Assembly: GCA_001778985.1 (NCBI GenBank)
Contig: MFIU01000002.1
Coordinates: 139,930 to 203,929 of the forward strand
Length of the DNA: 64,000 nucleotides
Direction of reading: 5' to 3'
Source of the DNA: Candidatus Giovannonibacteria bacterium RIFOXYD1_FULL_48_21
GTDB taxonomy: Bacteria > Patescibacteriota > Minisyncoccia > JACPKW01 > UBA11713
The notes below the pieces were generated by a model that worked only from the letters and a program-made list of their open reading frames with translations, was not told the DNA's origin and searched no databases. Numbering within the stretch: the first letter of the stretch is position 1; every line of letters begins with the position of its first letter. The translations under genes and the position numbers were made by a program. Below, in pieces: positions 14,801-41,442 of the stretch.

Positions 14801-15440
14801 AGAATAAGCAAGACTCCGGCGAGAGCGAGGCCGGCGCCCAAAAGTTTTCTGGAAATATTTTTTTCACGGAAGAAGAGCCAGCCCCGTAAGCAAAAATTCG
14901 ATTCGAATAGAGCACGGTCAGCTTGTCGAAGTTAACTGAAACCGAAGCCAAAAGCGCCACGAGCAAGCCCAAAAGATTTCCTTTTCTGAAATCTGGAACA
15001 TTATTCCGAGCCGGCACAACTTGACCAAGAGTCCATAACCCCAAAACCGACAAGACCACCCCCGCCATGCCGTAGACCGGAGGAAGTTCTCCCAAAAAAA
15101 TCCAGCCCGTAAAAAGCAAAAACACCGGCGCGGCAAGACTCATTGAATACACTGAGGAAAATTCTCCCAACTCGTAAGCCCGAAGTCCCAGAGGAAGCAT
15201 TATGATATTTAGGGTACTGGTTATCAAAACTGCCGGCCAAAAACCAGGTTTTAAATCAGGGAATCCTAAAAATAAAAAAGAAGCGGCGAGGAGAATCAGC
15301 GAAGCCGTGGCCGTCACCACCAGACCGATTCCAATCTTTGAAAACCGGGCCACTCTCACCGCCTCATTGGACAAGGCGTTAAGAACTGACTGCGCCAAGG
15401 CAGACCCTAACGCGAAAAAAAACCACAGAAACATACTCAA
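14754..15440 (-). CDS. EamA/DMT-family transporter whose 3' end has been replaced by an IS insertion (likely truncated)
   Basis: Multi-TM EamA-like repeat; the last ~15 codons (RRNGKLGNRMSKY) are read from the IS right-end hairpin sequence. Confidence 0.6.
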   Translation of the reverse strand: MSMFLWFFFALGSALAQSVLNALSNEAVRVARFSKIGIGLVVTATASLILLAASFLFLGFPDLKPGFWPAVLITSTLNIIMLPLGLRAYELGEFSSVYSMSLAAPVFLLFTGWIFLGELPPVYGMAGVVLSVLGLWTLGQVVPARNNVPDFRKGNLLGLLVALLASVSVNFDKLTVLYSNRIFAYGAGSSSVKKIFPENFWAPASLSPESCLFFSRRNGKLGNRMSKY

Positions 15441-16159
15441 GCGAGGCCGAGTTCTTGTATATTTTTCTCGGCCTCGGCCCAGTCTTTCAAATTGTCGATG
15501 TTGGCGCTGTATTTTTCTTCCATGACGTAGCCCACGACTTTATCGCCGTAAAAATTCGGTTCGTTTTCGTCAAACAAAAGTTCGCGCTTGAAAATATAGA
15601 CAGCACTGTTGTGAATATAGACTTTCGGCAAAAGCTGGCGCTGATAAACGCGCTTTCGCATCGGCTCCCCGCTCACAAAAAGTTTGACCAAACCTTTCTC
15701 GTCCATTTTAAGCGCCCACATCGGATTGAAGTGAGTCGGAATTTCAATCACGCTCACCACCGAGTCCGTTTTGGTTTTTTTGATAAGTTCGGCAGCTTCT
15801 TTGATATGCCAGGACTGGCGCAGGGGCGAGGTCGGTTGGAGAATTACGACGTAATTCGGAAAATAATTTTGATTGTCCCCGAGCCACTTGACCGCGTGCT
15901 GCATCACCGGCAGATGCGGGGTTTTGTCTTGGGCGAGTTCGGCCGGCCGCAGAAACGGAACTTCCACTCCCCACTTCTCGCCGACCGCCGCGATTTCTTT
16001 GTCGTCCGTGGACAAAATTATCCGGTCAAAAACACCGGAATTTTTCGCGGCCTCGATAGTCCAGGCGAGCAAGGGTTTCCCGCCAAGCTCTTTGATATTT
16101 TTTTTCGGGATGGATTTTGACCCTCCCCGCGCCGTGATAACTCCAAGAATCTTCGGCAT
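15437..16159 (-). CDS. acylneuraminate (nonulosonate) cytidylyltransferase, NeuA/LegF/PseF-like
   Basis: ITARGGSKSIPKKN P-loop-like CTP-transferase motif of the CMP-NulO synthetase family. Confidence 0.85.
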   Translation of the reverse strand: MPKILGVITARGGSKSIPKKNIKELGGKPLLAWTIEAAKNSGVFDRIILSTDDKEIAAVGEKWGVEVPFLRPAELAQDKTPHLPVMQHAVKWLGDNQNYFPNYVVILQPTSPLRQSWHIKEAAELIKKTKTDSVVSVIEIPTHFNPMWALKMDEKGLVKLFVSGEPMRKRVYQRQLLPKVYIHNSAVYIFKRELLFDENEPNFYGDKVVGYVMEEKYSANIDNLKDWAEAEKNIQELGLA

Positions 16160-16190
16160 AATAACTATAACTATAGTAAAAATTTGCGGT

Positions 16191-16233
16191 TTTACAACAA
16201 AAAAGAGGCGGTCTCTATGAGAGACTGCCTCTT
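16191..16233 (-). terminator. rho-independent terminator after the 16247..16732 gene
   Basis: Minus-strand AAGAGGCAGUCUC-UCAUA-GAGACCGCCUCUU stem-loop followed by UUUUUUGUUGUAAA. Confidence 0.6.
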
Positions 16234-16246
16234 TCCCTCGGTGGAA

Positions 16247-16732
16247 CTAACGTCTACTCACTATTACTGCAACGCCGAGAATAATGAGCAGGATGCCCAG
16301 AAAATGATAGAAATCCATCCTTACCGTATCAAAAAATCTGGGCATCAATGAACTGAAAAGAGCGGAGAGAAGGAATACGAACACAATCGCACTACTCTGA
16401 ATCGCAATCGGCAATCCGGGGTTTGGCGCTGCTGGAATAGCGCTGAACAGAAACAGATTTGTTAATGCGCCAAGTAAGATGCCAACCATAAACGGCGGCA
16501 AGAATTTTGACACCGAGAAGAAGGCTATGTCCCTTGCTGCGGTCGGTATCACTCCAGAAAGCATAAGGATGCTTGCGGCTCCGACTGACGTGCCGGCAAA
16601 ATACCCAACCATCGTTATCTCCGCGCTAATAGCGAAATTCTTCTTTAAGAAATCTATAGATAGCCAGGCGGGGATAACAAAAATAAGAGAAATTATGGAC
16701 TTCGCAACCCATCCAAGCTCTAAAAACTTCAT
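16247..16732 (-). CDS. small 4-TM DMT-superfamily (single EamA repeat, SMR/ArnE-like) membrane protein
   Basis: 161 aa, four hydrophobic helices, C-terminal GILLIILGVAVIV motif. Confidence 0.45.
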   Translation of the reverse strand: MKFLELGWVAKSIISLIFVIPAWLSIDFLKKNFAISAEITMVGYFAGTSVGAASILMLSGVIPTAARDIAFFSVSKFLPPFMVGILLGALTNLFLFSAIPAAPNPGLPIAIQSSAIVFVFLLSALFSSLMPRFFDTVRMDFYHFLGILLIILGVAVIVSRR

Positions 16733-16810
16733 ACAGCACCTCCATATATTAAGGATTTTAAAAAATTATACTATTTTATTTTAAATAACACAAGGGTCGG
16801 CAAATTTACT

Positions 16811-17833
16811 CTATTTAATGTTTAAATCCTCCCATTTAATAAGCTCGTCCTTTTTAATATCACGGGCGGCTTTGCTCCCAACGACCTTAGGCAATTCTTT
16901 CGCCGGAATGCCGTCTGCAAGGGGGCGCTTGGCGCCGACGCTCGAAGCCAAGATGGTTTCGCCAGCCGAAATATCCTCCAAGGCCACGACGCCGTGCCGC
17001 GCCCAACTTATCACCTCTTTCTCTTCATCTAAAATTCTTTTTTCGCTTCCGCAGGCTTTTTCTATTTTTCTGATACCGTCAACTAAAATTTTCCATTCCT
17101 GCGGCTCAAGAGATATTTTGTGATCTCCGGTGCCGCTCTGGTTCCGATCAAGCGTGTAATGCTTCTCAATCAGATTTACGCCGTAAGGAACCGAGGCAAT
17201 CGCGGAAAAGATCTCCGGCGTATGGTCAGATAAGCCTATGGGCACCTTAAAGCGCTCGCGCAAAACTTTAATCATGGCGAGATTCAGCGCTTCATAACGA
17301 GGCGGATATAAAGAAACCGTATGCAACACGATATAAGGCGCGCTGAACTTTTTCATGGCCTGGACGGCTTCTTCAATTTCATCGAAATTACTCATTCCGG
17401 TTGAAATGATTACGGGCTTTCCTTTTTTAGCGATATGTTCAAGCAAGGGAAGATTGGTCATTTCCCCGGAGCCGACTTTAAACGCGACGACCCCCATCGC
17501 TTCGAGTTCGTCCGCGGCGCGCGGAGAGAAAGGAGTGCAAAGAAAACATAAACCAAATCCTTCGGCAATTTTTTTCAGTTCAGAAATCTCTCCGGCGGAC
17601 AAAGAGCGCTTTTGCATTGATTCGAACTTGGGATGGCGGCGAATCATTTCTTCCTCCGGAATATGCAATTGGAATTTTACCGCATCAACTCCGGTGTCTT
17701 TTATTATTTCAATCATTCTCTTGGCCGTTTCAAAATCTCCATTATGAGCGTTGGCCACCTCGGCGACAATAAAAACCGGAAAACCCTCGCCTATATCCTT
17801 ATTGCAAATTTTTATGCTAGCCGCGGCTTCCAT
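16811..17833 (-). CDS. nonulosonic acid synthase (NeuB/LegI/PseI family) with C-terminal SAF domain
   Basis: FIVAEVANAHNGD...KFQ TIM-barrel signature plus SAF (antifreeze-like) C-terminal domain. Confidence 0.88.
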   Translation of the reverse strand: MEAAASIKICNKDIGEGFPVFIVAEVANAHNGDFETAKRMIEIIKDTGVDAVKFQLHIPEEEMIRRHPKFESMQKRSLSAGEISELKKIAEGFGLCFLCTPFSPRAADELEAMGVVAFKVGSGEMTNLPLLEHIAKKGKPVIISTGMSNFDEIEEAVQAMKKFSAPYIVLHTVSLYPPRYEALNLAMIKVLRERFKVPIGLSDHTPEIFSAIASVPYGVNLIEKHYTLDRNQSGTGDHKISLEPQEWKILVDGIRKIEKACGSEKRILDEEKEVISWARHGVVALEDISAGETILASSVGAKRPLADGIPAKELPKVVGSKAARDIKKDELIKWEDLNIK

Positions 17834-18722
17834 AATATGAGGTTGGCATTAAAAGAGTTTCGCGTCCGATTTTCATCGCAAAGCGCAAAGAGGCGTCGGG
17901 CGGCTCTTTCTTATAAAAAAACTTAAAAATTAAAGCCGCCGCGGCCGCGTCCCCGGCTCCGCCTATGAATGGCGGATTTTTCACTTTTCGCGGAAAAACT
18001 CTAAGCACACTATGCTTGGCTTTGAACCAGGCTTCTCTTGGCCCCCTAGTTATAAAAATATACGGAATTGGAAATTTTAAAAGGTCGCCTACCTGCGGTT
18101 TTCTATTAAAAAATAATTTTGCTTCTGTTTCGTTTAACGCCAAAAAATCCAATTGGGGAATAATATTTTTCCCCTTTCTGGAACGCAAAAAATCAACCGA
18201 AGCGACTAGCCCGGAAATTTGACCGGGATGGTATTTCTTCAAAAAAAGCGCGGCTAAATCTCCTTCGGCCGCCTCCCCGGAAATCTCGGCTAAAATCTTT
18301 AGGCGGGCTTTTTCGGCGTGGTGCTTCAACGCTTTGTGAACCGAACGATTTAGGACGACTTTTCCTCCGCGATATCCGAAGGCCCATGTTTTGCCCCGAG
18401 AAGGGATAAGATAATATGAACTGGGGGTTTTCTCCCGCAGAAAAAAAGTTTTATAAAAAAACTTTTCCTGTTTTAGCAGATATTCAACTGCCCTCGTATC
18501 CGGGTCATTGGCCTTTCCCAGAAAACTTACGAGAGAAATTTTTTTAGAGGGAACTCCTAAAGTCTGAAACGATTTCGCGATATTAAAAGCCCCTCCGCCA
18601 AGCTGCACCAAGGGAGAAATCTTCATAATGCCCTTTTCCTCTTTCCGGTCATAATGCAAGATGTGTTCCAGAAAAACGCTGAAGCCGAGCGCGATAAATT
18701 GTCTTCCCAAAATCTTCGGCAT
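17817..18722 (-). CDS. PfkB-family carbohydrate kinase (ribokinase-like)
   Basis: GGGAFNIAKSFQTLGV and C-terminal GAGDAAAAA motifs. Start moved from the ORF-track 18833 to the ATG at 18722 (MPKILGRQ) to avoid a 100-nt overlap with the neuC-like stop. Confidence 0.7.
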   Translation of the reverse strand: MPKILGRQFIALGFSVFLEHILHYDRKEEKGIMKISPLVQLGGGAFNIAKSFQTLGVPSKKISLVSFLGKANDPDTRAVEYLLKQEKFFYKTFFLREKTPSSYYLIPSRGKTWAFGYRGGKVVLNRSVHKALKHHAEKARLKILAEISGEAAEGDLAALFLKKYHPGQISGLVASVDFLRSRKGKNIIPQLDFLALNETEAKLFFNRKPQVGDLLKFPIPYIFITRGPREAWFKAKHSVLRVFPRKVKNPPFIGGAGDAAAAALIFKFFYKKEPPDASLRFAMKIGRETLLMPTSYYGSRG

Positions 18723-18727
18723 AATTT

Positions 18728-19897
18728 TTAATAGGTTATCTTTTTCTGGATGTCTGGCAATTTGATGGTGGCGAGAATTTCGGCGATTTGCTTGCCGGCC
18801 GTGCCGTTGCCGTATATGTATTCCGCCGGCCACCTGCCTTTCGAAAGCTGCCGCCGGATGGCATTTTCAATATCATTACGCTCGCAGGAAGCGTCTAAAA
18901 CATTCGACCCGCGCTCGCGGCTCTGCTGTCTGGAGCCAATGTTGACCACCGGCAGACCGAAATAACAAGCTTCCCGGATACCGCTTGAAGAATTCCCGAT
19001 AAGGCCTGACGCGTTTCGAAGCAAGTTAACGAACAACTCGTGAGGAATATGCTTCAGGACCAAGACGTTTGATTTCGCGCCGTCAAAATGGGTGGCAAGA
19101 TACTTTCGAATTATTTTGGAGATGGCGTCAGAGCCGGCATCAATGTTCGGCCAAAGCATCAAAACCTGCTCGTCGAATTTTTTAAGGGCTTCAAGCGTTT
19201 CTATAATCTGTTTCTCTTCGGAACCGAATTCCGTGGTAACCGGGTGCTGAACAACCAAGAGGTAAGGTTTCTCGGGATCGAACTTTTCGGGTCCTTTTAT
19301 TACTTCTTTGTTCAGATGCGTCAAAACCTCCTCCCGATTCAGAGGAGGAACTCTCAAAATTAAATCCGTCCCTGGACAGCCCACGTTGAAAACATTTTCC
19401 TCCGGCTCACCCATTTTTATCACCCGTTCCCGGCTTTTCTCGGTGGCGACAAGATGAAGATGAGAGAGTTTGGAAAGGGCGTGCCGGATAGATTCGTCGA
19501 TAGTGCCGGTAACTTCACCGCCCTGAATGTGAGCCACATGGATATTCAAAAGCGCCGCCGCGACGCCCATGGCCAGGGATTCAAAACGATCCACCGGCAC
19601 CAGCACAACATCCGGACGAAGATGTTCCAAGGCCGTGGTTAGTTCAATGATGGCGAGCCCCACCGACTTCGTCATGGAGACAGGATTTCCGCCCTCCAAT
19701 TCCATCTGAACATTCCAATCGGCGTCAAAGCCTTTTCTTTTTATTTCTTCCGCGGTCCGTCCGGTTTTCTCCAAAAGATGCGAACCCATCACCACCAGCT
19801 GAAGCTCCAAATCAGGATGATTTTTAATCTCAATCAAGGCGCTTTCCATTCGCGAAAAGTCAGCCCGATTGGCGGTTATGGCGCAAATTTTTCTCAT
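18728..19897 (-). CDS. UDP-N-acetylglucosamine 2-epimerase (hydrolysing), NeuC/LegG-like
   Basis: Epimerase_2 family motifs (HIQGGEVTGTIDESIRHA, GNSSSGIREA). Confidence 0.85.
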   Translation of the reverse strand: MRKICAITANRADFSRMESALIEIKNHPDLELQLVVMGSHLLEKTGRTAEEIKRKGFDADWNVQMELEGGNPVSMTKSVGLAIIELTTALEHLRPDVVLVPVDRFESLAMGVAAALLNIHVAHIQGGEVTGTIDESIRHALSKLSHLHLVATEKSRERVIKMGEPEENVFNVGCPGTDLILRVPPLNREEVLTHLNKEVIKGPEKFDPEKPYLLVVQHPVTTEFGSEEKQIIETLEALKKFDEQVLMLWPNIDAGSDAISKIIRKYLATHFDGAKSNVLVLKHIPHELFVNLLRNASGLIGNSSSGIREACYFGLPVVNIGSRQQSRERGSNVLDASCERNDIENAIRRQLSKGRWPAEYIYGNGTAGKQIAEILATIKLPDIQKKITY

Positions 19898-20985
19898 AGG
19901 GCGAGGTCGGAGCGCTGAATCAAGCTGCCTTTCGAAATCATTCTAGCGGCTTTCGCGCCTAGAAATTTCCGGTATTCCTTGGAGCGAATTCCGGTTCCGG
20001 GACGTTTGGAGGTCAACATTTCCCGCGTAATTGGCGTCCCTTCCTGAATATCCACCGCCGCCACCAAACTTCTTTTGGCCCAAATCCAGACTGGTTTTTC
20101 ATCTTCAAAAATATCTTTTCTCGGCGCCAGAGCTTTTTCCCATTGCCGCACATTCTCCACAAGGTGCTTTAAGGTAATTGGGTCATGAGAGAAGAAACTG
20201 TCAGCGTCGTCCGCCTTGCGATCCAAGGTGAAATGCTTCTCGATAAACCTGGCGCCCGCTCCAAGTGCTACCGCCAGAATTTCGTCTTCGCTTATTTTTC
20301 TTCCCGAAGCTTCATCCGTTACTCCTTCGGGCGGGCTGTGGTCTGACCAGCCCACTAGAACTTCGTAGCGTTCCCGCAAAAAAGGAATGGTGCCGAAACG
20401 AAACTGATTAAGACTCTTTATCGGATAGACCGAGATGCAGTGTGCAAGGCAAAAAGGAGTGTTGTGGGATTTCAAAGTGTTTGCCGTCAGGTCAAGTTCA
20501 TCCAGACTTGTCATGCCGGTTGAAACCATCATGGGTTTGCCGAACTTCGCGACCTCTTCAATCATCGGCAGATCTTCGGTTTCGCCCGAGCCGATTTTAA
20601 AAGCCTCTGCCCCCATCTCATTCAGCAGTTGAGCGGCTTTGAGAGAGAAGGGGGTACAAAAATATTGGATGCCGATTTTATCGCAATAGTCCTTAAGCTG
20701 GGCGTGCTCTTCCGGTTTTAAAAGAAATTTCTCCACGAAGCCGTAGAGCGAACCCCACTTCGAGAAAAAAGGAGTGCTGGTTAGTTTTTCTATCTCCGGT
20801 TTCACCATTTCCTCTTCCGGCAGGTGCAGCTGGAATTTTATGATATCCGCGCCGGATTCTTTGGCCGCCTGGGCCATCTCCTTCGCGCGCGACAAACTGC
20901 CCATGTGGTTGTCGCACCCCTCGGCGATGATTGCCGCTGGCCTGCCTTCTCCTATTTCCACTTTGCCGATTTGAATCGTGTTCAT
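19894..20985 (-). CDS. second nonulosonic acid synthase paralog (NeuB family) with SAF domain
   Basis: AAIIAEGCDNHMGS...KFQLH signature; C-terminal SAF domain. Confidence 0.88.
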   Translation of the reverse strand: MNTIQIGKVEIGEGRPAAIIAEGCDNHMGSLSRAKEMAQAAKESGADIIKFQLHLPEEEMVKPEIEKLTSTPFFSKWGSLYGFVEKFLLKPEEHAQLKDYCDKIGIQYFCTPFSLKAAQLLNEMGAEAFKIGSGETEDLPMIEEVAKFGKPMMVSTGMTSLDELDLTANTLKSHNTPFCLAHCISVYPIKSLNQFRFGTIPFLRERYEVLVGWSDHSPPEGVTDEASGRKISEDEILAVALGAGARFIEKHFTLDRKADDADSFFSHDPITLKHLVENVRQWEKALAPRKDIFEDEKPVWIWAKRSLVAAVDIQEGTPITREMLTSKRPGTGIRSKEYRKFLGAKAARMISKGSLIQRSDLAL

Positions 20986-26912: not shown

Positions 26913-26950
26913 AAAGAGGAATGTCGCTCGACATTCCTCTTTATATTTTC
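26913..26950. terminator. bidirectional stem-loop terminator between convergent genes
   Basis: Perfect inverted repeat AAAGAGGAATGTCG-CT-CGACATTCCTCTTT followed by ATATTTT. Confidence 0.6.
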
Positions 26951-35373: not shown

Positions 35374-35374
35374 C

Positions 35375-35782
35375 TTATATAATTTTTACCAAAGCCCTGC
35401 CCTCTACCGCCACTCGGCCTTCGGAATCAAAAATCTCCATCTTGATTTCCACAATCTTTGTTGATTCAGATTTGCTGACCACGGTTCCTTTTACCTTAAA
35501 CTTTTCCCCCGCCAAAATCGGCCGATGAAAATTCAAGTTTTGAGAAAGATACAAGGAATCTTTTCCGGGAATAACCATCCCGACTAAATAAGAAAATTTA
35601 GAAGCGACGAGAAGGCCGTGCGCCAGGCGTCCCTTATAGCCCTTGGTTCGGGCAAATCCATCGTCCAGGTGCAGGGGACTCTGGTCTCCGGAGAGTTTCG
35701 CGAAAGCCTTAATATCTTCTTCGGAAAAACTGCACAAAACCGGCTCGGTTTCATATCCTACGTTAATGTCTTCAAATTTCAT
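35375..35782 (-). CDS. MaoC-like hot-dog fold dehydratase/enoyl hydratase
   Basis: 135-aa hot-dog domain with the conserved SGDQSPLHLD motif. Confidence 0.8.
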   Translation of the reverse strand: MKFEDINVGYETEPVLCSFSEEDIKAFAKLSGDQSPLHLDDGFARTKGYKGRLAHGLLVASKFSYLVGMVIPGKDSLYLSQNLNFHRPILAGEKFKVKGTVVSKSESTKIVEIKMEIFDSEGRVAVEGRALVKII

Positions 35783-35791
35783 AAATAAAAT

Positions 35792-36754
35792 TTAATAGGC
35801 GCGGTCGCGATCTCCGTCGGCCTTAACCACGAACCAATCCATGGGCGGCTCTTGGTCTGGGCGGTCAACGTGTTTATACGTGAAGTTGAGGGTCAGCCTT
35901 TTTCTATCAACCGGCAAAATAAAAATCGGCGGGTCCGTACTGACTTTACGATTCGCCGCGTGAAAACCGGCTTCCTGAAAGGCTTCACCATACCTTGATG
36001 GAAAAGAAAAAAAATCAATAAAATCCGCTTTAGCGTCTTTGGCAAAGTTAACTGCCTTTTTTACGAGCCTTGCCGCGGCTTCCGGGCCGCCGATAAGGTC
36101 GACAATGCGGCAAGCCGTAAGCTCCTCCCCTTTCTCGATTCTTAAAATGATATAACCCTCTAACCCGCCAAAAATCTGATATTTAATTTTTGGATTATCA
36201 ATAAAACGCCAATTCAGATAAGCCGCCGAACGGTCAACCGTCGCGGCATAATCATGGCTCAACGTCTCCCAAGCCTTGTCCCACTCCGGGCCAAACTTAT
36301 CTATGGCGGCAATATCCGAGTCCTCGGCAAATCCGCGGTTTTCCTTTAAGTCCCTCACCCAGCGCGTCATCAGAGCTTCCTCGCTCCAGCCGCAAAATTT
36401 AAAGACGGGCGCGGAGGGAGGACTGAAACCCGTGGTATAGAGAATATCAAAATATTTCTCGGCTTCGCGAACCAAGAGCACTCCGGCTCCGCGCGAACGT
36501 AAATCTTCGAACACAATCAGACAGCCCAGAAACGCCGCGTTGAACAGTCTTCCGCGGACTCGAAATTTATACCCAATCAGCCCCAAGTGCCCGACGATCT
36601 CGCTATTTTTTTCGAGCAGTAAATTGGAATAACCAGGAAATTGCCATTTCAAATATTCTTTCTCGCTCATGATGTGGCCGGGTTTATAAACTTTCTTAAA
36701 AAAATCTATCAAGGCCGGAATGTCATTTTCCTTAGCTAGTCTTACGCTGTACAT
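35792..36754 (-). CDS. GNAT-family acyltransferase with C-terminal extension
   Basis: N-terminal GNAT pattern (LIVFEDLRSRGAGVLLV, acyl-CoA/ACP binding loop). Confidence 0.5.
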   Translation of the reverse strand: MYSVRLAKENDIPALIDFFKKVYKPGHIMSEKEYLKWQFPGYSNLLLEKNSEIVGHLGLIGYKFRVRGRLFNAAFLGCLIVFEDLRSRGAGVLLVREAEKYFDILYTTGFSPPSAPVFKFCGWSEEALMTRWVRDLKENRGFAEDSDIAAIDKFGPEWDKAWETLSHDYAATVDRSAAYLNWRFIDNPKIKYQIFGGLEGYIILRIEKGEELTACRIVDLIGGPEAAARLVKKAVNFAKDAKADFIDFFSFPSRYGEAFQEAGFHAANRKVSTDPPIFILPVDRKRLTLNFTYKHVDRPDQEPPMDWFVVKADGDRDRAY

Positions 36755-36758
36755 AGCT

Positions 36759-37004
36759 CTAAAGTTTTATCCCCTTATTGACGAGGTAGCGTTTAATATC
36801 CCCGAGATTTTTTGCTTCCATGGTCTCGTCGACTGTGAACTGAACTTTAAATTCTTTCTCCAGTTCGGAGATAAAAATAAGGTAATTCATGGAGTCCCAG
36901 TCCGGAATCGTGCTTGGCGACATTTCATCATTAATTTCCTGGGCGGAAACTTTGAAAATTTTTTGGATGATGGGTATCAGCTTATCCATATCGTTTTTAT
37001 CCAA
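36759..37004 (-). CDS. acyl carrier protein
   Basis: 81 aa with phosphopantetheine attachment motif DWDSMNYLIFISELEKEF (DSx core). Confidence 0.8.
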   Translation of the reverse strand: MDKNDMDKLIPIIQKIFKVSAQEINDEMSPSTIPDWDSMNYLIFISELEKEFKVQFTVDETMEAKNLGDIKRYLVNKGIKL

Positions 37005-38023
37005 TCCGGCTTCAGGTTCGCGTTTTTCAAATCAAAACGGCCGCCTTCGAAATACTTTTCCAAAAACTCTTTGGCCGGCTGGTTCTTTTCCGTCTCTTTG
37101 AATAAAATTCTTAGCTCTTTGGCATTATTCTCTCTGGCTCTTTGGGCCATAAAATGTAAAAATGCTTCCTCGATTCCCCGCCCCAAGGCTCGGCAACTCG
37201 CGAGCAAGGACTCTATCAGCCATTCTTCCGAATCCTTATTAATCGAGGCAAAAGCTATCACGCCGTAATCTCCGAATTTATCGCGCGCGGCCGCGTGAAA
37301 TATGGAATGGGACGGTTCAGCGATCCGCCGCGAAATTTCATTCTCTGACATGGGTTTTTTATTCGTGTTAAATTGATTGGTTTTCTCGGTAAGTTGCGCC
37401 AACCTCGAGAGGCAGGAGGAATCGTCTTGGTAGCAATGGACTTCTATCTCCAAGCTTTTCAGGAAATCTTCTTTAGCCCCGTAATTATTTTCCGCGGCCT
37501 TGCGCAGACGTTCCGTAACGTATAAATTGCCGCGCATTTTGTCTTCATCAGTAGTGACCCCGCCCTTGAAATACGGCAAAGTCAATAAAAATTTTGCGTA
37601 TTTTTCGGGGTCCTGGGGCAAATCGGGGGTTTCTACTTCCGGCAAGGCATTTCGCATAACGGCGCGGTTTACCGGGTCATCGTCCAAAAACACCAGAGAG
37701 TCCAAACCGATATTCAGCTCCTTCGCGATTTCGCGCATGTTGTCCGGTTTCTCATTCCAATTAATGCGGAGGGACGCGAAATTATTTTCCTTCAAAACCA
37801 TATTCGGGTGGCGGCGAATCACCGCCATGGCGTCTTCATAATTATTCCGGCTGTTGAGCGCTAAAATAATTCCGCGATTATGCAAATCCAGAATGGCCTG
37901 CTGAAAAGCGACAAAGCCGCGGCCGGATGCATCCCAGCCCAGCTTGATGCCGTCTAATCCCTCCTCGCCCACCACCCCTCCCCACAGGGTGTTATCTAAA
38001 TCAAGAACTAAACATTTTTTCAT
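36977..38023 (-). CDS. FkbH-like HAD-IIIC domain protein (ACP-loading phosphatase/acyltransferase type)
   Basis: LVLDLDNTLWGG HAD motif I, LALNSRNN, LFLDD motifs, plus a C-terminal acyltransferase-like half typical of FkbH. Confidence 0.65.
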   Translation of the reverse strand: MKKCLVLDLDNTLWGGVVGEEGLDGIKLGWDASGRGFVAFQQAILDLHNRGIILALNSRNNYEDAMAVIRRHPNMVLKENNFASLRINWNEKPDNMREIAKELNIGLDSLVFLDDDPVNRAVMRNALPEVETPDLPQDPEKYAKFLLTLPYFKGGVTTDEDKMRGNLYVTERLRKAAENNYGAKEDFLKSLEIEVHCYQDDSSCLSRLAQLTEKTNQFNTNKKPMSENEISRRIAEPSHSIFHAAARDKFGDYGVIAFASINKDSEEWLIESLLASCRALGRGIEEAFLHFMAQRARENNAKELRILFKETEKNQPAKEFLEKYFEGGRFDLKNANLKPDWIKTIWIS

Positions 38024-38027
38024 ATTA

Positions 38028-38378
38028 TCATATAGTTAAAATTACAAACGCCAGCGCCCAATCTTTCGCGTGCGATAAGGACGCAAAAATTTTCAAATCC
38101 TGACATCCATTAATCCGCAGGCGCGGCGTGCCGGATTTATAAATAATTTCAATGTTTTTTAAATCTGTGGCGCGGCCCAGCGCTTTAAGGCCGGCTTCTT
38201 TGGCGCAAAATCTGGCGGCAAAATGCGGATAGGGGTCGGCTTTCGCCGTGCAGTACTCCAACTCCTTTTTTGTAAATATCTTCCGGTAGAAAGGCTTATT
38301 TTCTTTATACGGCAGGTTCCTGAAACGAGCAATGCTTTCGATATCGGCGCCAATCCCAACAATAACCATATTAAACAA
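38028..38378 (-). CDS. acpS: holo-ACP synthase (4'-phosphopantetheinyl transferase)
   Basis: IVGIGADIESIARF and FAAKEAGLKALG signatures. Confidence 0.8.
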   Translation of the reverse strand: MFNMVIVGIGADIESIARFRNLPYKENKPFYRKIFTKKELEYCTAKADPYPHFAARFCAKEAGLKALGRATDLKNIEIIYKSGTPRLRINGCQDLKIFASLSHAKDWALAFVILTI

Positions 38379-39750
38379 ATTGCAAGATATACTTCCCTAT
38401 GCGCTCGCCGGATTTTCCGTCCGTAAATTTGCACTGCTCTTGGACCAGACGCGCTCTCCCCTCCTTATCCAAGGAAGGATTTTCCAAGTAGCGCCTGACC
38501 GCGCTTACTAATTCCTCGGGGCTCGCCACCAATCTTACGCCGTCGGTATCTAAAACTTTTTTATAATGCGCTATCTCTGAATACTGCCTGAAATAGCTGA
38601 ATAAAGATTCTGGCTTTAATTCAAAATTTATATTTATCACCGGGCGGCCGAATATGGCCGCGTCTATACTCAGGCTGGAAGCGTAACAAATCAAAAGCGA
38701 CATATGATAAAGAATGTCGCGCAGGTGGGCCAGCTCGGAAGTATCCATATCCCAATCGTCTCCCCTTTGGTAGTACGCTATCTTGGAAGAAAAACGCACT
38801 CCAGAGTAATCATATTTCAAATGCGGCCTCTTTTTGAGCTCGGCTTCGTCTATCACGTCATAAGGATGGAAACGCACTAAAATCTCGACATCTTCGCCAA
38901 AACTTCCTTCTTTATTCAATGAATACAGCAGGTCAATCATGTCCCAGTCGGAATCGCTATACGAACTGCCGTGCGGAGCATATACGATAATTTTCTTTCG
39001 CGGGTCCAGGCCGAAGCGCTGGCAAAACGTCTCGCGCGCCAAAACCTCCGGACGAAAATAAATATCGTACTGCGGTATTCCGCCCACAAAAATGTCTTCC
39101 TCTTTGACGCCGTTATAATGAATAACTTCGCCCTTGACTATGTCATTAAATACAACTAATTTGTCGGGCAAAAGTCTCAAAACGCACCGGGCCGTAACTT
39201 TGTCCCAAGAATTGATAAAACCGATAACTTTCACGTCGTGATGCTTGGCCGCTCGCAAAAAGTGCACCTCGGGTTCGAAAAAGATATTGGCCAAGAAAAC
39301 CAAATCGGGTTTATATCTTTCAAAAAAACTATCATAGGCGTGATTCGTTACCAAATAGTAATCCAGCCGGCGCGCCAAGAGCAGAAAATATTTGCGGGCA
39401 ATCAAGCGATTTACCAAAAGTCCAAACCAATATCTGAAATGTCTCCAGACTCCCTTTCGGGACTTAAAGCGGACTAGGCGTCTTAAGTCAGTGGTTTTGG
39501 TGCGCAAAAGCGCGAATTTCAGCCACTGAAAGAATCGGTCTAAACCTAGAATTGGGATAGGCGGAGCGACCTCATATAAAATTCTTTCGCTTTCTCCAAA
39601 TTCTTTTTTATGGTATGCCGCCCGCTCCGGGTCTTTGGTAAAAATAACGACGCGCGTGTCCGGCTCTTTCAAGATGGTTTCAAAGATTGACGAACGCAGG
39701 ACATTTTTCGTTTCAACTCCCTCAAAACTGGTGACAAAAATCGTCTTCAT
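38371..39750 (-). CDS. TagB/TagF-like GT-B protein, paralog 2 of 5
   Basis: Same N-terminal MKTIFVTSF...RN and C-terminal SIDAAIFGRPVI / NPSLDKEGRARLVQEQCKFTDGKSGERIGKYI motifs. Confidence 0.55.
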   Translation of the reverse strand: MKTIFVTSFEGVETKNVLRSSIFETILKEPDTRVVIFTKDPERAAYHKKEFGESERILYEVAPPIPILGLDRFFQWLKFALLRTKTTDLRRLVRFKSRKGVWRHFRYWFGLLVNRLIARKYFLLLARRLDYYLVTNHAYDSFFERYKPDLVFLANIFFEPEVHFLRAAKHHDVKVIGFINSWDKVTARCVLRLLPDKLVVFNDIVKGEVIHYNGVKEEDIFVGGIPQYDIYFRPEVLARETFCQRFGLDPRKKIIVYAPHGSSYSDSDWDMIDLLYSLNKEGSFGEDVEILVRFHPYDVIDEAELKKRPHLKYDYSGVRFSSKIAYYQRGDDWDMDTSELAHLRDILYHMSLLICYASSLSIDAAIFGRPVININFELKPESLFSYFRQYSEIAHYKKVLDTDGVRLVASPEELVSAVRRYLENPSLDKEGRARLVQEQCKFTDGKSGERIGKYILQFV

Positions 39751-39857
39751 CCCGTTAGAAATTTTACTAATAAACTTTTGCCATGATTATAAAAGCCGAA
39801 GGCGAATTCGCTCCCTCCAAAATATCTTATGATAATCTTGGTTGAATTTCTAACGGG
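39751..39857 (-). promoter_or_regulatory. 13-bp inverted repeat (CCCGTTAGAAATT / AATTTCTAACGGG) spanning the whole NeuB-cupin / TagF-like intergenic region
   Basis: Arms at 39751-39763 and 39845-39857; the left arm abuts the downstream start codon. Confidence 0.3.
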
Positions 39858-39870
39858 ATTCATGAGTCAC

Positions 39871-41442
39871 TCACACTCCGCCGGTCAAGTCCTGCTCCTC
39901 AATGTCCTCCAGCTGGTGCTGGCCCCAGTTTAAAAGATAGGTTTTTCGCTCATCTCTCGGCAACTTGGCGATGGAAGGGTCAAGATAAAAAGAGTCTTCT
40001 TTATGGTTGGCAGTGGAAATTTCCTCAAAGACCGCGCCAGCGTCGGTTCCGAAGCTATGCACCACTCCTCTTGGAATCCAGAGCATGTCTCCGGGATATA
40101 AAATTTTTTTCCGTCCCTGAACTTCCACTTCCAAAACTCCGGAAAGAACCTGAAAAGTTTCATCTTTAAGTTTATGGTAATGCTCGGGATTGAATTGACC
40201 CGAAAGTTGAACCAAAATTTTCTTCGCATACTCCCGGTTAAAGCATTCTATGATAGCCGCGCCCACCTCTTGAAACCGCTCGATGCCGTAATGGTGCGAA
40301 AGCTCCACGGAAAAATCATGGCCGACCGGAACTTTCGCCTCGTTCAGCATCCCTTTGATGGCGTGGATGGAATGATAGACAATTTCTTTTTTAGATTTCG
40401 TGTCGGGCCGGAGCGAGGCCGAAAGAGCTTCGTTGGGATGGTAATCCCGGTCGGCCGCGAGTCCGGCCAGAAAGCGTCCCGAAACAAGCTGCCCTTCCTG
40501 CAAAGGCATGGCGAAAAATACGTCTTCATAATTCAGGGTTTCTCCGGCTTTTATCTCCCGCTTGGTCCAGACTCCTCTCACAAAAGTTCTTAAATCCTCG
40601 GCCTCTTTTTCTGGAATTTCCCGCTCGCCCCTTTCCCCGCAGGCCTCGACGGCTTCCCTCCAAGCTCCGAGCCAGGCGCGCACTTGACCGGGATTGGCGG
40701 AATAAGCGTTCAATTTTATCTGGTCAGTTTCAAGGCCCACGTGTTTTTCAAAAATCCTGGCGCCTTTGGCGTAAGCCAGGCGAATGGCATTCAGATTTGA
40801 AGGTTCCTCGTGAGTGGAAAACCCGATGACGATTCCGGGGTAGCGATTTTTCAAAATTTCAATCTGGTTTAGAGAAAACTTGTCGTTCGGGGTGGGATAG
40901 ATGGAAACGCAGTGCAAAAGCGCGAAATGAACGCCCCGCTTCTGGAAGAAGCTCACGATTTTATCGATGTCGCGGATGACGAGTCCGCCGACGGAAACGA
41001 TAACCGGTTTTCCGGTCTGACTCGCCCGCTCCAGCAACGGCCAATCTTGATTGGAAGGAGAACCGATTTTAATCACTCCAACCCCCAATCTTTCAATCTT
41101 ATCCACCGAGGGTTCGTCAAACGGGGTCGCGACGGTCAAAAGCCCCTCGTTCTTAATCTCGCTCGTCAACCGAGAAAATTCTTCTTCAGAAAGGCGGGTT
41201 TCCAAAAACCGCTTCATATAGTGGCTGTTGGAAAATTTTTCATGTTCGGGGTGAATGATGGCGTCCAAATCGCGAAATTGAAGCTTGGCGGCCGCTCGGA
41301 TTTTAAATTCCCGGGCGATCTCCCCCATTTCGCGAATTATCCGGAGTCCATGCTCTAAAGAGCCCTGATGGTTGTTGGCGAGCTCAAAAATGAATAAATT
41401 TTCGAAATCGAATTTTCGCTCGTTTCTCATTGTGGTCCGCAT
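39871..41442 (-). CDS. NeuB-family nonulosonic acid synthase fused to a C-terminal cupin (PMI/sugar-isomerase-like) domain
   Basis: N-terminal NeuB TIM barrel (FIFELANNHQGS...KLQ) and SAF region; last ~120 aa carry a cupin_2 motif HYHKLKDETFQVLSGVLEVEVQG...PGDMLWIPRGVVHSF. Confidence 0.75.
   Translation of the reverse strand: MRTTMRNERKFDFENLFIFELANNHQGSLEHGLRIIREMGEIAREFKIRAAAKLQFRDLDAIIHPEHEKFSNSHYMKRFLETRLSEEEFSRLTSEIKNEGLLTVATPFDEPSVDKIERLGVGVIKIGSPSNQDWPLLERASQTGKPVIVSVGGLVIRDIDKIVSFFQKRGVHFALLHCVSIYPTPNDKFSLNQIEILKNRYPGIVIGFSTHEEPSNLNAIRLAYAKGARIFEKHVGLETDQIKLNAYSANPGQVRAWLGAWREAVEACGERGEREIPEKEAEDLRTFVRGVWTKREIKAGETLNYEDVFFAMPLQEGQLVSGRFLAGLAADRDYHPNEALSASLRPDTKSKKEIVYHSIHAIKGMLNEAKVPVGHDFSVELSHHYGIERFQEVGAAIIECFNREYAKKILVQLSGQFNPEHYHKLKDETFQVLSGVLEVEVQGRKKILYPGDMLWIPRGVVHSFGTDAGAVFEEISTANHKEDSFYLDPSIAKLPRDERKTYLLNWGQHQLEDIEEQDLTGGV

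Follow-up and report, generated by a model that had tools for sequence, protein, structure and literature searches.

Three NeuB-family synthases with different conserved neighbours in a surface-sugar locus of Candidatus Giovannonibacteria

Gene content and family assignment

The genome of Candidatus Giovannonibacteria, a tiny CPR bacterium from Rifle groundwater, harbors a surface-sugar locus of very large size, with several copies of the genes for nonulosonic acid (NulO) biosynthesis. The question raised by this locus is whether a single NeuA/NeuB/NeuC trio was duplicated, as first proposed, or whether the copies belong to different routes. In the window, the whole stretch of 64,000 nucleotides analysed, three NeuB-family synthases, two CTP_transf_3 transferases and two hydrolysing NeuC-type 2-epimerases are encoded, all by intact minus-strand ORFs at exactly the low-end coordinates of the original prediction. 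The assumed CPR-type genome was confirmed as well, the NeuB3 protein being recorded as Candidatus Giovannonibacteria bacterium RIFCSPHIGHO2_01_FULL. Chance family matches are ruled out, since the E-values of the seven NulO genes span 1e-23 to 1e-77 in Pfam searches. An assembly artefact is ruled out because the identical gene arrangement recurs on 24 contigs of independent samples (including contig MFHR01000012.1 of GCA_001778665.1). Loci with several NeuB genes are uncommon but not unique; among 80 related loci (L numbers below), two or more NeuB-family genes occur in 13 and three or more in two (L027, L036), and multi-set loci recur in other genomes. An IS200-like gene flanks the locus.

NeuA1 (15437..16159, minus strand; PF02348, 84 bits) is a CMP-nonulosonate synthetase-like cytidylyltransferase and the putative partner of the NeuB1 and NeuB2 routes. 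Its best PDB match is the CMP-NeuAc synthetase 6ifd (147.5 bits), and in NCBIfam it reached 172.6 bits with the PseF model (cutoff 205.7) and at most 55 bits with the KdsB models. NeuA1 shares 60.6% identity with the cytidylyltransferase encoded in the transketolase cluster of L008 and 55% with its L094 counterpart. NeuA2 (27579..28289, minus strand; PF02348, 98 bits), the cytidylyltransferase of the NeuB-isomerase operon, is 48–68% identical to its counterparts in this operon in L005–L007 and was matched by 6ifd with 115.5 bits versus ≤41 for KdsB. Thus, CMP-NeuAc synthetase structures give both proteins 115–147 bits and KdsB ≤41 bits, and with NCBIfam the corresponding values are 129–173 bits for PseF and 30–60 bits for the KdsB models. 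No clustering with Kdo enzymes was seen; judged by these scores, the genes of the locus are much closer to NulO than to Kdo enzymes.

Both hydrolysing UDP-GlcNAc 2-epimerases, NeuC1 (18728..19897, minus strand; Epimerase_2, PF02350, 258 bits) and NeuC2 (32449..33678, minus strand; PF02350, 214 bits), exceed the NeuC_NnaA cutoff of 235.9 in NCBIfam (408.6 and 309.5 bits, respectively), while the WecB model gives just about 75 bits each. NeuC2 has an N-terminal insertion and ends the N-acyl module described below. NeuC1 is 70% identical to its orthologue in L008, a locus that contains two NeuC genes too. None of the three NeuB and neither of the two NeuA proteins reached an NCBIfam equivalog cutoff.

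As proposed, the copies are diverged, with identities of 40% (NeuA1/NeuA2), 37% (NeuB1/NeuB2), 30% (NeuB1/NeuB3) and 38% (NeuC1/NeuC2) and an overall range of 27–40%. At these identities, the paralogues are old. Closer orthologues of each (57–73% identical) are found in other genomes, where their conserved neighbours differ. Because each NeuB has its own conserved neighbours in other genomes, the three are not considered redundant copies, and the proposal of a duplicated trio was abandoned, NeuB3 being a fusion from a NeuC-independent operon. With a probability of roughly 0.55, the locus combines three routes (A, B and C) that differ in mechanism and lead to CMP-activated ulosonic acids with enzymes for attachment to a surface polymer. 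The sugar identities we infer for all three routes.

NeuB1, NeuB2 and their neighbours

NeuB1 (16811..17833, minus strand) is a canonical-type NeuB+SAF synthase (PF03102, 229 bits). It was matched by NeuB_NnaB with 303.8 bits (below the cutoff of 399.65) and retains all mapped catalytic and ManNAc-contact residues of NmNeuB, including E134, D247 and R314. Between NeuC1 and NeuB1 lies the gene of a PfkB-family sugar kinase (17817..18722, minus strand; PF00294, 33.5 bits, C-terminal part matched) containing a GAGD motif. Orthologues of NeuB1 (61% identical) adjoin PfkB and HAD genes in L093, in the order PfkB-HAD(DFDNT)-NeuB, and a ROK kinase in L094. The PfkB gene of L093 is 38% identical to that of the window; in L094, the NeuB1 orthologue directly follows the ROK kinase and is accompanied by NeuC and NeuA. 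ROK instead of PfkB is a non-orthologous kinase replacement at one position. This neighbourhood suggests an animal-like phosphorylated route, and we propose that the kinase is a ManNAc-type 6-kinase and that NeuB1 uses phosphorylated N-acyl-mannosamine. In route A, N-acyl-mannosamine would be released from the UDP-sugar by NeuC, phosphorylated by the PfkB kinase and joined with PEP by NeuB1 to yield a nonulosonate-9-phosphate, which a HAD phosphatase and NeuA1 would convert in the final steps, in the same manner as in the GNE-kinase/NANS/NANP/CMAS pathway of animals. Since the window contains no phosphatase of its own for route A, the HAD protein encoded at 26941 would have to be shared. Gene content and conserved neighbours of this route are observed, its chemistry is deduced. 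A 161-aa multi-pass membrane protein, hydrophobic throughout, is encoded between NeuB1 and NeuA1 (16247..16732, minus strand) and gave no match in Pfam, NCBIfam or PDB.

NeuB2 (19894..20985, minus strand; PF03102, 210 bits, plus SAF), the second canonical-type synthase, contains two insertions, retains the catalytic and sugar-contact residues mapped to NmNeuB and is linked to a transketolase block. It is 72.6% identical to the sole NeuB of the L008 cluster, where it likewise follows SDR, transketolase and epimerase genes. The block comprises three minus-strand genes. The first encodes an extended SDR of the epimerase/decarboxylase/dehydratase type (20982..21944; PF01370, 192 bits) with SSEVYG and YxxxK motifs, which stays under all NCBIfam equivalog cutoffs; L008, L011 and L012 have similar genes close to their transketolase. 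The second encodes a transketolase-family ThDP enzyme (21941..23893) with transketolase N, pyrimidine-binding and C domains, the third a classical SDR (SDR275, 23871..24698; adh_short), a PtmA-like, conserved partner of the transketolase. Orthologues of this SDR (58–68% identical) adjoin the transketolase in L008 and L011, and its counterpart in L010 is fused to a CTP_transf_3 domain. The earlier impression of SDRs resembling ptm/leg genes goes back to this one protein, whose matches are below cutoff (PRK09186, 162 versus 255 bits; FlagModPtmA, 118 versus 350).

An N-acyl remodelling module (33675..38378, minus strand) encodes, according to Pfam, a CE4 deacetylase, a FabG-like SDR, a MaoC dehydratase, a GNAT-like 320-aa protein, an ACP (36759–37004, an ORF with DSM motif), FkbH (36977–38023; 311.9 bits, above the curated cutoff of 146.65) and an AcpS-type PPTase. 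L008 retains all genes of this module in the same order (51–75% identity), and there the FkbH/ACP module adjoins the transketolase block. The gene order of this Giovannonibacteria locus (Gly, AcpS, FkbH, ACP, GNAT, MaoC, SDR, deacetylase, SDR275, transketolase, epimerase, NeuB2-type, two NeuC, NeuA1-type) matches the route B genes of the window at 51–75% identity. In route B, NeuC1, NeuB2 and NeuA1 would act together with the PtmA-like SDR, the transketolase and the extended SDR, and would also draw on the acyl module (deacetylase, FkbH, ACP, AcpS, GNAT-like protein, MaoC and FabG-like SDR) and NeuC2. Most likely, the outcome would be a neuraminic-type acid that carries a glycerate-derived acyl group in place of N-acetyl and has additional modifications. 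NeuC1 and NeuA1 each fit route A or route B, and their assignment is not unique.

It is possible, if rather unlikely, that the transketolase, and perhaps the adjoining extended SDR, is a housekeeping pentose-phosphate enzyme that supplies fructose-6-phosphate and does not act on a nonulosonate. The enzyme has all three transketolase domains and a GDG ThDP motif, its identity across distant phyla is about 60%, and unrelated genes share operons in CPR genomes. However, it does not reach the NCBIfam transketolase equivalog cutoffs (385.6 versus 488), and its reading frame overlaps both adjoining ORFs. Moreover, homologues (58–65% identical) are located within NulO clusters of five further genomes (L008, L010, L011, L012 and L094), including a Sungiibacteriota genome, an Acidobacteria MAG and a Curtissbacteria genome (58–62% in these three and L094); an aldehyde dehydrogenase gene and that of the PtmA-like SDR usually adjoin them. 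The aldehyde dehydrogenase accompanies the transketolase in four other loci and is absent from the window.

The NeuB3 synthase-isomerase operon

NeuB3 (39871..41442, minus strand) consists of a NeuB-type synthase (residues ~15–325; PF03102, 142 bits) fused to a cupin resembling D-lyxose/mannose isomerases (~341–523; C-terminal Cupin_2). Unlike NeuB1 and NeuB2, it gave no SAF match in Pfam, and it is matched far better by PDB entry 3g8r (298.7 bits) than by NmNeuB (97 bits). Metal-side and PEP-side residues are retained, whereas E134, D247 and R314, on the ManNAc side in NmNeuB, are replaced by S, N and M. For the C-terminal domain, AF2 gave a model (pLDDT 86.9) whose top PDB matches over the full length (TM 0.65–0.70, E 2e-10) are D-lyxose isomerases, among them structures solved with fructose or mannose (7nzp, 7nzq, 3mpb); the metal motif of this domain (H421/H423/E428/H462) is invariant. 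Relatives of NeuB3 are encoded in at least 549 species genomes of CPR and many other phyla, some being additionally fused to CTP_transf_3; the fusion is a widespread, uncharacterised synthase.

The operon, comprising synthase-isomerase, HAD, CMP-transferase, Gfo-like oxidoreductase and often a TagB/F-like transferase, is conserved in CPR and many other phyla (47 of the 80 related loci are non-CPR). Of the 52 loci whose flanks are complete, 46 have a GFO gene within 3.5 kb; CTP_transf_3 is nearby in 46, HAD in 38 and all three in 32, NeuC in only four and DegT in one. The operon is NeuC-independent. The HAD-IA phosphatase (26941..27582, minus strand; HAD_2, 74 bits) has a DFDG motif and the sugar-phosphate phosphatase TM_1254 as best PDB match. 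Its orthologues (38–45% identical) immediately follow the NeuB-cupin gene in L006, L007 and L094, and it is proposed to be a ulosonate-phosphate phosphatase. The oxidoreductase is encoded twice, by GFO1 (24688..25728, minus strand), which is 54–61% identical to the gene adjoining NeuB-cupin in L005–L007, and GFO2 (28289..29350, minus strand), 72% identical to GFO1. Of the predicted interleaved Gfo/Idh/MocA genes, two are present, but both match the family weakly (N-terminal and C3 domains for GFO1); the structure prediction of the Gfo-like enzyme has a pLDDT of 47. The gene transcribed immediately before NeuB3 encodes an extended SDR of 293 aa (41444..42325, minus strand; PF01370, 62 bits; no NCBIfam equivalog match).

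The product of the operon is most likely a Kdn-type deaminated sugar. In route C, the isomerase domain would convert a central ketose, most likely fructose-6-phosphate, to mannose-6-phosphate, which the NeuB domain would condense with PEP to Kdn-9-phosphate; the HAD protein would remove the phosphate, NeuA2 would form the CMP-sugar, and the Gfo-like oxidoreductase would modify some intermediate. A precedent is given by the KL1/KL2 loci of Serratia marcescens, which contain only neuA and a neuB with an extra sugar-phosphate isomerase domain and produce Kdn over Neu5Ac at about 20:1 (PMC9000132).

Alternatively, the substrate might be a pentulose or pentose (xylulose/lyxose, phosphorylated or not) or some other ketose, and the fused domain might lead to an 8-carbon Kdo-like or novel ulosonic acid modified by the Gfo-like enzyme. 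To our knowledge, the known D-lyxose isomerases take unphosphorylated sugars, so the fused domain might use free fructose or xylulose; in that case the HAD protein would be left without explanation. The primary pair of these nearest structural relatives is lyxose/xylulose, the Gfo-like gene, which a plain Kdn pathway does not require, equals the cytidylyltransferase gene in conservation, and E134 and D247 are altered relative to known 9-carbon-acid synthases. Nevertheless, a product other than Kdn is considered unlikely: these isomerases also bind mannose and fructose, NeuA2 resembles CMP-NeuAc synthetases and not KdsB, and Kdn is the product of the sole NeuB+isomerase fusion with an experimental link (PMC9000132).

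Other readings of the locus and surface attachment

The original prediction of two or three classical CMP-nonulosonates, made by parallel Campylobacter-like Neu, Leg and Pse pathways with ptm-like tailoring, is very doubtful. It accounts for the number of NeuB, NeuA and NeuC genes, the models TIGR03569 and TIGR03568 span Neu- and Leg-type enzymes (both NeuC proteins pass the latter), one SDR has sub-threshold PtmA-like matches, and a PseC/LegC-like DegT is encoded at 50749. However, equivalents of PseB, PseC, PseH, PseG and PseI or a LegB/LegC/LegH set are lacking between 15 and 42 kb. No protein of this interval reached the NCBIfam equivalog scores of PseB, LegB, PseI or PseF (best scores versus cutoffs: 46.7/407.75 for PseB, 148/475 for LegB, ≤235/340 for PseI), and for all three NeuB proteins the PseI score was no better than the NeuB score. 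Pfam detected no DegT aminotransferase in the interval either; the DegT genes of the window all lie outside, and the one at 44996 makes up a colitose-type route together with Gmd and an Fcl-like gene. NeuB3, finally, has lost ManNAc-side residues, and its operon in other genomes mostly lacks NeuC and DegT. The general idea of more than one CMP-activated ulosonic acid is plausible; the Campylobacter-like Leg/Pse/Neu reading is not supported, given sub-cutoff scores and missing DegT.

Just as doubtful is true redundancy, i.e. isozymes feeding one nonulosonate (e.g. Neu5Ac) and kept after duplication or horizontal acquisition: NeuB1 and NeuB2 both have the full NmNeuB residue set, GFO1/GFO2 is a recent duplicate and the IS200-like gene adjoins the locus, but the paralogues are too diverged (27–40%) and have closer relatives among different conserved neighbours, NeuB3 departs in sugar-side residues and domain architecture, and three isozymes are improbable in a streamlined CPR genome.

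Under the preferred reading of three routes, the CMP-sugars would be transferred or polymerised by five TagB/TagF-like GT-B proteins. Gly1 (29337..30722, minus strand; weak Glyphos_transf match) and Gly2 (38371..39750, minus strand; Glyphos_transf, 54.6 bits) are candidate CMP-ulosonate transferases; a Gly1 homologue accompanies the NeuB-isomerase operon in 22 of the 52 loci, and Gly2 is 43% identical to an operon-linked gene in L007. In Tannerella forsythia, TagB-like proteins have been proven genetically to be the NulO transferases (PMC5420450); with the BFO_1060 family, Gly1 (43.5 bits) and Gly2 (55.2 bits) are both far below the cutoff of 200. Three more such genes with Glyphos_transf matches (57801–59222, 60636–62015 and 62012–63364, minus strand), with methyltransferases between them, lie outside the flagged interval and are 26–30% identical to Gly1/Gly2. 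EamA-type membrane proteins may flip or export intermediates, a candidate transporter or flippase being the EamA/DMT-type protein at 30779..31705 (minus strand; weak EamA match). A hydrophobic 358-aa multi-pass membrane protein (25828..26904, plus strand) has no family match. A protein with a PaaX middle domain (31833..32387, minus strand; PF20803, 84 bits) is a possible regulator.

Gene content of the nonulosonate interval

Between 15437 and 41442, minus-strand ORFs follow each other in the window without a break, apart from one gene on the plus strand (25828-26904). The three NeuB-like, two NeuA-like and two NeuC-like genes named in the original prediction were all found by Pfam where they had been placed. 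PF03102 (cutoff 22.1) scored 229 bits with NeuB1 (16811-17833), 210 bits with NeuB2 (19894-20985) and 142 bits with NeuB3 (39871-41442). CTP_transf_3 is present in two proteins, NeuA1 (15437-16159) and NeuA2 (27579-28289), and Epimerase_2 in two others, NeuC1 (18728-19897) and NeuC2 (32449-33678). Paralogues of NeuA, NeuB and NeuC are 27-40% identical. A SAF domain was detected in NeuB1 (44 bits) and NeuB2 (42 bits), with KRP retained in both; NeuB3 gave no SAF match in Pfam and carries a C-terminal Cupin_2 domain instead. The genome, suspected to be of the CPR type, does belong to the candidate phyla radiation (CPR), of which Candidatus Giovannonibacteria is a member.

Both NeuC proteins pass the hydrolysing NeuC model TIGR03568 (408.6 for NeuC1 and 309.5 for NeuC2, cutoff 235.9), and they score 77 and 72 bits, respectively, with the non-hydrolysing WecB model. 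None of the three NeuB or two NeuA proteins reached an equivalog cutoff in NCBIfam. With NeuB_NnaB (TIGR03569, cutoff 399.65), scores of 303.8, 254.9 and 130.7 were obtained for NeuB1, NeuB2 and NeuB3, and with PseI (TIGR03586, cutoff 340.25) 235.5, 223.1 and 132.4, the NCBIfam and PDB scores serving as a proxy for a reference tree in the class placement of NeuB. The PseF equivalog (cutoff 205.7) was missed by NeuA1 (172.6) and NeuA2 (128.7). Of the reference residues of N. meningitidis NeuB (NmNeuB; catalytic E25, E134 and E234, metal ligands H215 and H236; PMC8208679), NeuB1 and NeuB2 retain all, together with K129, S132, Y186, D247 and R314. The set thus resembles NeuC/NeuB/NeuA of Neisseria meningitidis and E. 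coli K1 in passing the NeuC equivalog, in the active-site residues and SAF domain of NeuB1 and NeuB2, and in cytidylyltransferases similar to CMP-NeuAc synthetase. Unlike those systems, its synthases and cytidylyltransferases stay below the equivalog cutoffs, and a kinase, a transketolase, SDRs and an acyl module are conserved as extras.

The locus had been likened to the legionaminic and pseudaminic acid (Leg/Pse) genes of Campylobacter. This reading is unsupported, since no DegT aminotransferase was found by Pfam between 15 and 42 kb and the scores with PseB, LegB, PseI and PseF lie far below their cutoffs. The extended SDR at 20982 scored 46.7 with PseB (cutoff 407.75) and 148.4 with LegB (cutoff 475), while the DegT protein at 50749, outside the interval, scored 240.5 with PseC (cutoff 423.5) and 196.6 with LegC (cutoff 420). 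A Pse pathway was rejected, as PseB/C/H/G-like genes are absent. A Kdo pathway, the alternative raised with the original prediction, was rejected as well because KdsB scores are far under those of the nonulosonic acid (NulO) type: NeuA1 and NeuA2 match the CMP-NeuAc synthetase structures 6ifd (147.5 and 115.5 bits) and 1eyr (100.7 and 80.9 bits), against 32 and 41 bits for the best KdsB structure. An assembly artefact was dismissed, as 24 contigs of independent samples, contig MFHR01000012.1 of GCA_001778665.1 among them, carry the same locus. The genes scanned included none of the NeuD type and none for a polysialyltransferase, and neither Rfam families nor tRNAs were found in the 64-kb window.

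The NeuB3 fusion protein and its operon

NeuB3 retains the metal and PEP-side residues E25, E234, H215 and H236, and E134, D247 and R314 are replaced by Ser, Asn and Met, respectively. In the NmNeuB structure, R314 is in contact with the N-acetyl moiety of ManNAc, and its replacement in NeuB3 would fit a substrate that lacks an N-acetyl group. The nearest solved relative of the synthase domain is PDB 3G8R (298.7 bits over residues 15-323), an 'SpsE-like' structural genomics protein of Chromobacterium violaceum with no assigned function. It shares the exchange of E134 for Ser and has no Arg at the R314 position (Phe in 3G8R, Met in NeuB3), but with 350 aa it is devoid of an isomerase domain.

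The AlphaFold model of NeuB3 residues 341-523 (pLDDT 86.9) displays a cupin fold with an extra N-terminal helix, which matches solved lyxose isomerases across the whole domain. Compared to 2y0o and 7nzp/7nzq, 167-183 of 183 columns were aligned (E 2.4e-10, TM 0.65-0.70, 23% identity). The best structural matches are B. subtilis YdaE (2y0o), a Thermofilum enzyme, for which structures with D-fructose and with D-mannose were solved, and E. coli Z5688, solved with fructose, followed by phosphomannose isomerases. A metal site of H421, H423, E428 and H462 is invariant in 26 family members. Lyx_isomer (PF07385) scored 24.2 bits (cutoff 20.8), over a stretch of 28 residues only. In a set of 1.84 billion representative proteins, the isomerase-like domain accounts for 319 clusters (50% identity) and, among the matches listed, is mostly C-terminal in proteins of about 500-520 aa. 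Members of the NeuB3 family are about 520 aa long with the same NeuB and cupin architecture, the best 120 matches listed being 56-72% identical. In some members of the NeuB-cupin family, a further domain is fused to the other two: CTP_transf_3 in P0061 (770 aa), which unites isomerase, synthase and CMP-activation in one polypeptide, and CTP_transf_like in P0007 (674 aa). A literature search for cupin with NeuB gave no relevant match, and a paper on the phylogeny of NulO synthases mentions neither cupin fusions nor CPR (PMC8208679).

A full-length relative of NeuB3 was found in at least 549 genomes in a scan with one genome per species. The best 80 loci (48-67% identity over the whole fusion) comprise 32 from CPR, 47 from other phyla and one unclassified. 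Those outside the CPR include Deltaproteobacteria, Verrucomicrobia, Acidobacteria, Gemmatimonadetes, Planctomycetes, Bacillota, Chloroflexi, Elusimicrobia, Nitrospirae, Alpha- and Gammaproteobacteria and Bacteroidetes. Neighbours on the same strand within 3.5 kb were counted in the 52 loci whose flanks extend 3.5 kb or more in either direction. A Gfo-like gene and a cytidylyltransferase gene were each present in 46 of them and a HAD gene in 38, all three together in 32. A TagB/F-like gene was counted in 22 of the 52 loci, NeuC in four and DegT in one. In three other CPR genomes, the NeuB3 homologue is accompanied by a HAD hydrolase, CTP_transf_3, a Gfo-like oxidoreductase of about 353 aa and a Glyphos_transf-like gene.

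The operon is split in the window. The TagB/TagF-like gene Gly2 (38371-39750) and NeuB3 lie at 38-41 kb, and the genes for HAD, NeuA2, the Gfo/Idh/MocA-like protein GFO2 (28289-29350) and the TagB/TagF-like Gly1 (29337-30722) at 27-31 kb. Judged by identity, NeuA2 (48-68%), HAD (38-45%) and GFO1/GFO2 (54-61%) of the window are orthologous to the operon genes of the other genomes, GFO1 (24688-25728) being an extra copy with 72% identity to GFO2. The HAD protein (26941) has a DxDG motif, and its nearest PDB relative is a sugar-phosphate phosphatase. For the Gfo-like protein, a PDB search gave insignificant matches only, and its AlphaFold model, built from a two-sequence alignment, has a pLDDT of 47 with the C-terminal domain unmodelled.

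Gene content and conserved neighbourhoods are the data from which we infer the most probable chemistry of three routes. For NeuB3, the isomerase domain would convert a central ketose to an aldose, most simply fructose-6-P to mannose-6-P, which the NeuB domain would condense with PEP to Kdn-9-P. The HAD enzyme would dephosphorylate this product and NeuA2 activate it to CMP-Kdn, and the Gfo-like enzyme would act at some step of the route. To our knowledge, the characterised lyxose isomerases act on unphosphorylated sugars, so that an octulosonate or another product is possible for this route. The Kdn reading has its best precedent in the Serratia marcescens KL1/KL2 capsule locus, where only neuA and a neuB with an extra sugar-phosphate isomerase domain are present and Kdn prevails over Neu5Ac by about 20:1 (PMC9000132). 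In both cases, a NeuB-isomerase fusion is combined with a CMP-transferase and no NeuC. By description, the Serratia fusion partner is COG1082, a xylose-isomerase-like TIM barrel in a protein of about 746 aa, whereas that of NeuB3 (523 aa) is a cupin of the D-lyxose isomerase type. Furthermore, the operon described here includes a HAD phosphatase and a Gfo-like oxidoreductase, unlike the Serratia locus. With its occurrence in many phyla, the synthase-isomerase fusion operon is a candidate for a new pathway.

Loci combining the NeuB-isomerase operon with classical NulO sets recur: at least two NeuB genes are present in 13 of the 80 loci, and at least three in two of them (L027 and L036). Loci with several NulO sets are known, e.g. 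from Campylobacter and Leptospira. Since multi-NeuB loci recur elsewhere, the redundancy highlighted in the original prediction is not unique in itself.

Kinase-associated and transketolase-linked gene sets

A PfkB-family kinase with an intact GAGD motif is encoded between NeuC1 and NeuB1; a PDB sequence search with it gave no match. Orthologues of NeuB1 in CPR are 58-68% identical. In one of their loci (L093), a PfkB kinase gene is followed by that of a 231-aa protein with the HAD motif DFDNT and by NeuB, with NeuC and NeuA alongside. In another (L094), a ROK-family kinase gene immediately precedes NeuB and follows NeuC and NeuA. The presence of two unrelated kinase families at one position argues that the kinase step belongs to this route. 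The product of NeuC would accordingly be phosphorylated by the PfkB kinase, NeuB1 would act as a 9-phosphate synthase, and a HAD phosphatase and NeuA1 would complete the sequence; in the window, the HAD enzyme would have to be borrowed from the NeuB-isomerase operon. NeuC1 and NeuA1 are each shared candidates for this route or that of NeuB2, without unique assignment.

The animal sialic acid pathway consists of GNE (epimerase and ROK kinase), NANS, NANP and CMAS, and Bacteroides thetaiotaomicron has a Kdn-9-P synthase/phosphatase route with a KdsC-like phosphatase of the C0 type. The putative kinase-dependent route (NeuC, PfkB/ROK kinase, NeuB1, HAD) and, with its HAD enzyme, that of NeuB3 appear to follow the same logic of a sugar phosphate, a NeuB-type synthase, a HAD phosphatase and a cytidylyltransferase. 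The window kinase is of the PfkB type, unlike the animal ROK kinase, which has its counterpart in L094, and the phosphatase is a HAD-IA enzyme with a cap, unlike the C0 type of Bacteroides. A bacterial neuraminic-type route apparently using a kinase and a phosphatase, as in animals, is a second lead, judged from sequence.

The surroundings of NeuB2 are best compared with another Giovannonibacteria locus (L008), which encodes orthologues of NeuB2 (73% identity), NeuC1 (70%) and NeuA1 (61%). Its gene order is Gly, AcpS, FkbH, ACP, GNAT-like, MaoC, SDR, deacetylase, PtmA-like SDR, transketolase, epimerase, NeuB, NeuC, NeuC, NeuA and aldehyde dehydrogenase, and the window looks like this arrangement with two inserted blocks. 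The transketolase (21941-23893, minus strand) has all three Pfam transketolase domains and, on inspection, the ThDP motif GDG, but missed the equivalogs NF004559 (385.6, cutoff 488) and TIGR00232 (157.8, cutoff 682). NulO clusters that encode homologues with 58-62% identity occur in a complete Sungiibacteriota genome, in one MAG each of Acidobacteria and Curtissbacteria, and in L094. Altogether, a transketolase-family gene lies within the NulO clusters of six genomes from CPR and Acidobacteria (that of the window, L008, L010, L011, L012 and L094). It is usually accompanied by genes for a PtmA-like SDR and for an aldehyde dehydrogenase (about 486 aa). Neither an aldehyde dehydrogenase nor a KdsC-type phosphatase, both partners of the transketolase elsewhere, was found in the window. 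The conserved order and the recurrence in other NulO clusters argue against a stray housekeeping gene, with sugar-phosphate supply still among the options for its role.

In the Sungiibacteriota locus (L010, CP066690.1), a 531-aa protein encoded at 1854-3449 fuses CTP_transf_3 to an orthologue (60% identity) of the PtmA-like SDR of the window (23871-24698), which suggests that this SDR acts on or with the CMP-sugar step. In the Curtissbacteria locus (L012, JANLHP010000022, 11689-15461), the transketolase and NulO genes are adjoined by genes for an acylating acetaldehyde dehydrogenase, a 4-hydroxy-2-oxovalerate aldolase-like protein and an acetolactate-synthase-like ThDP enzyme, a carbon-carbon chemistry set unusual for a glycan locus.

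FkbH of the acyl module scored 311.9 bits with TIGR01686 (cutoff 146.65) and is flanked by an ACP (81 aa, DSM motif, 36759-37004) and an AcpS-type PPTase (38028-38378), all on the minus strand. The deacetylase and the module of FkbH, ACP, GNAT-like protein, MaoC and SDR would replace the N-acetyl group by an acyl group derived from glycerate, and the altered sugar would be handled by NeuC2 and NeuB2. This sugar would be tailored by the SDR, the transketolase and the extended SDR, the options being sugar-phosphate supply, a two-carbon (glycolyl-type) unit or a chain modification. Nothing relevant linking transketolase with nonulosonic or legionaminic acid was found in the searchable literature. 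The recurrent link is a candidate for a tailoring system and, beside the FkbH/ACP module, may account for the installation of unusual N-acyl groups, e.g. glyceroyl. Such groups occur in the NulOs of Tannerella forsythia, Pse5Am7Gra and N-glycolyl-Leg (PMC5420450, PMC5378307). They could logically stem from an FkbH/ACP module, the likeness being at the level of the sugar; the sugars of T. forsythia derive from the Pse/Leg pathways, which are absent in the window.

Combined reading, candidate transferases and surroundings

We give a probability of roughly 0.3 to the joint reading that the NeuB-isomerase/HAD/cytidylyltransferase/Gfo-like operon of at least 549 species genomes, from CPR and many other phyla, is a previously uncharacterised pathway. 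It would lead straight from a central ketose phosphate, without a nucleotide-sugar precursor, to a deaminated ulosonic acid in CMP-activated form, either Kdn or a redox-modified derivative of it. In CPR, two other routes would be combined with it, one neuraminic, similar to that of animals and dependent on a kinase, the other N-acyl-remodelled and linked to a transketolase, and TagF-like enzymes would build a teichulosonic-acid-like anionic wall polymer. New is the composition, i.e. a cross-phylum synthase-isomerase operon, a bacterial kinase-coupled NeuB route and a transketolase-linked NulO cluster with an FkbH acyl module in one streamlined CPR genome. In the searchable literature, no paper was found that treats nonulosonic acids in connection with Patescibacteria or CPR. 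CPR bacteria are thought to live attached to hosts, and their surface chemistry is almost unknown. The glycan-filled 64-kb window and the three ulosonic acid routes suggest a central role of acidic nine-carbon sugars in the envelope and perhaps in host contact.

Five TagB/TagF-like (Glyphos_transf) GT-B genes, 26-36% identical among themselves, are found in the window. Besides Gly1 and Gly2, these are located at 57801-59222, 60636-62015 and 62012-63364 (all minus strand), the latter three interleaved with FkbM-type and other methyltransferase genes. TagB-like NulO transferases of T. forsythia (Tanf_01245 and BFO_1060) were proven genetically (PMC5420450). As in T. forsythia, TagB-like GT-B proteins adjoin the NulO genes here, and by analogy all five are candidate CMP-sugar transferases or polymerases. 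Gly1 (43.5 bits) and Gly2 (55.2 bits) missed the BFO_1060 family NF046086 (cutoff 200), and the similarity is a general Glyphos_transf one only. Together with the methyltransferases, the five genes hint at a polymer similar to teichoic or teichulosonic acids.

Glycan biosynthesis fills almost the whole window, interrupted only by SecA, an arginine decarboxylase and a ribosome hibernation factor. Its glycan genes include those of an initiating Bac_transf, a Wzy_C/TPR protein, GT2 enzymes, an ABC exporter, RmlC-like proteins and methyltransferases. Gmd (499.5 bits, above cutoff), an RfbH/ColD-like DegT protein and an Fcl-like reductase (43156-47159, minus strand) span about 4 kb, with a stretch of about 0.9 kb separating the Fcl-like and DegT genes. 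This set looks like a GDP-colitose-type route to a 3,6-dideoxyhexose, separate from the nonulosonate genes.

Four multi-pass membrane proteins, EamA/DMT-like or unclassified, are scattered among the NulO genes (14754-15440, 16247-16732, 25828-26904 and 30779-31705) and may be transporters or flippases; the third is the sole plus-strand gene of the interval. A PDB sequence search with a 161-aa membrane protein gave no match. An IS200-like Y1 transposase gene (14097-14744, minus strand) borders the locus, and the gene of a PaaX-middle-domain (Cas2-like) protein lies midway in it (31833-32387, minus strand). At the far end of the window, genes for a PIG-L deacetylase, a WbqC-like protein and a GH18 chitinase-like protein (94-2569, plus strand) adjoin the glycan genes.
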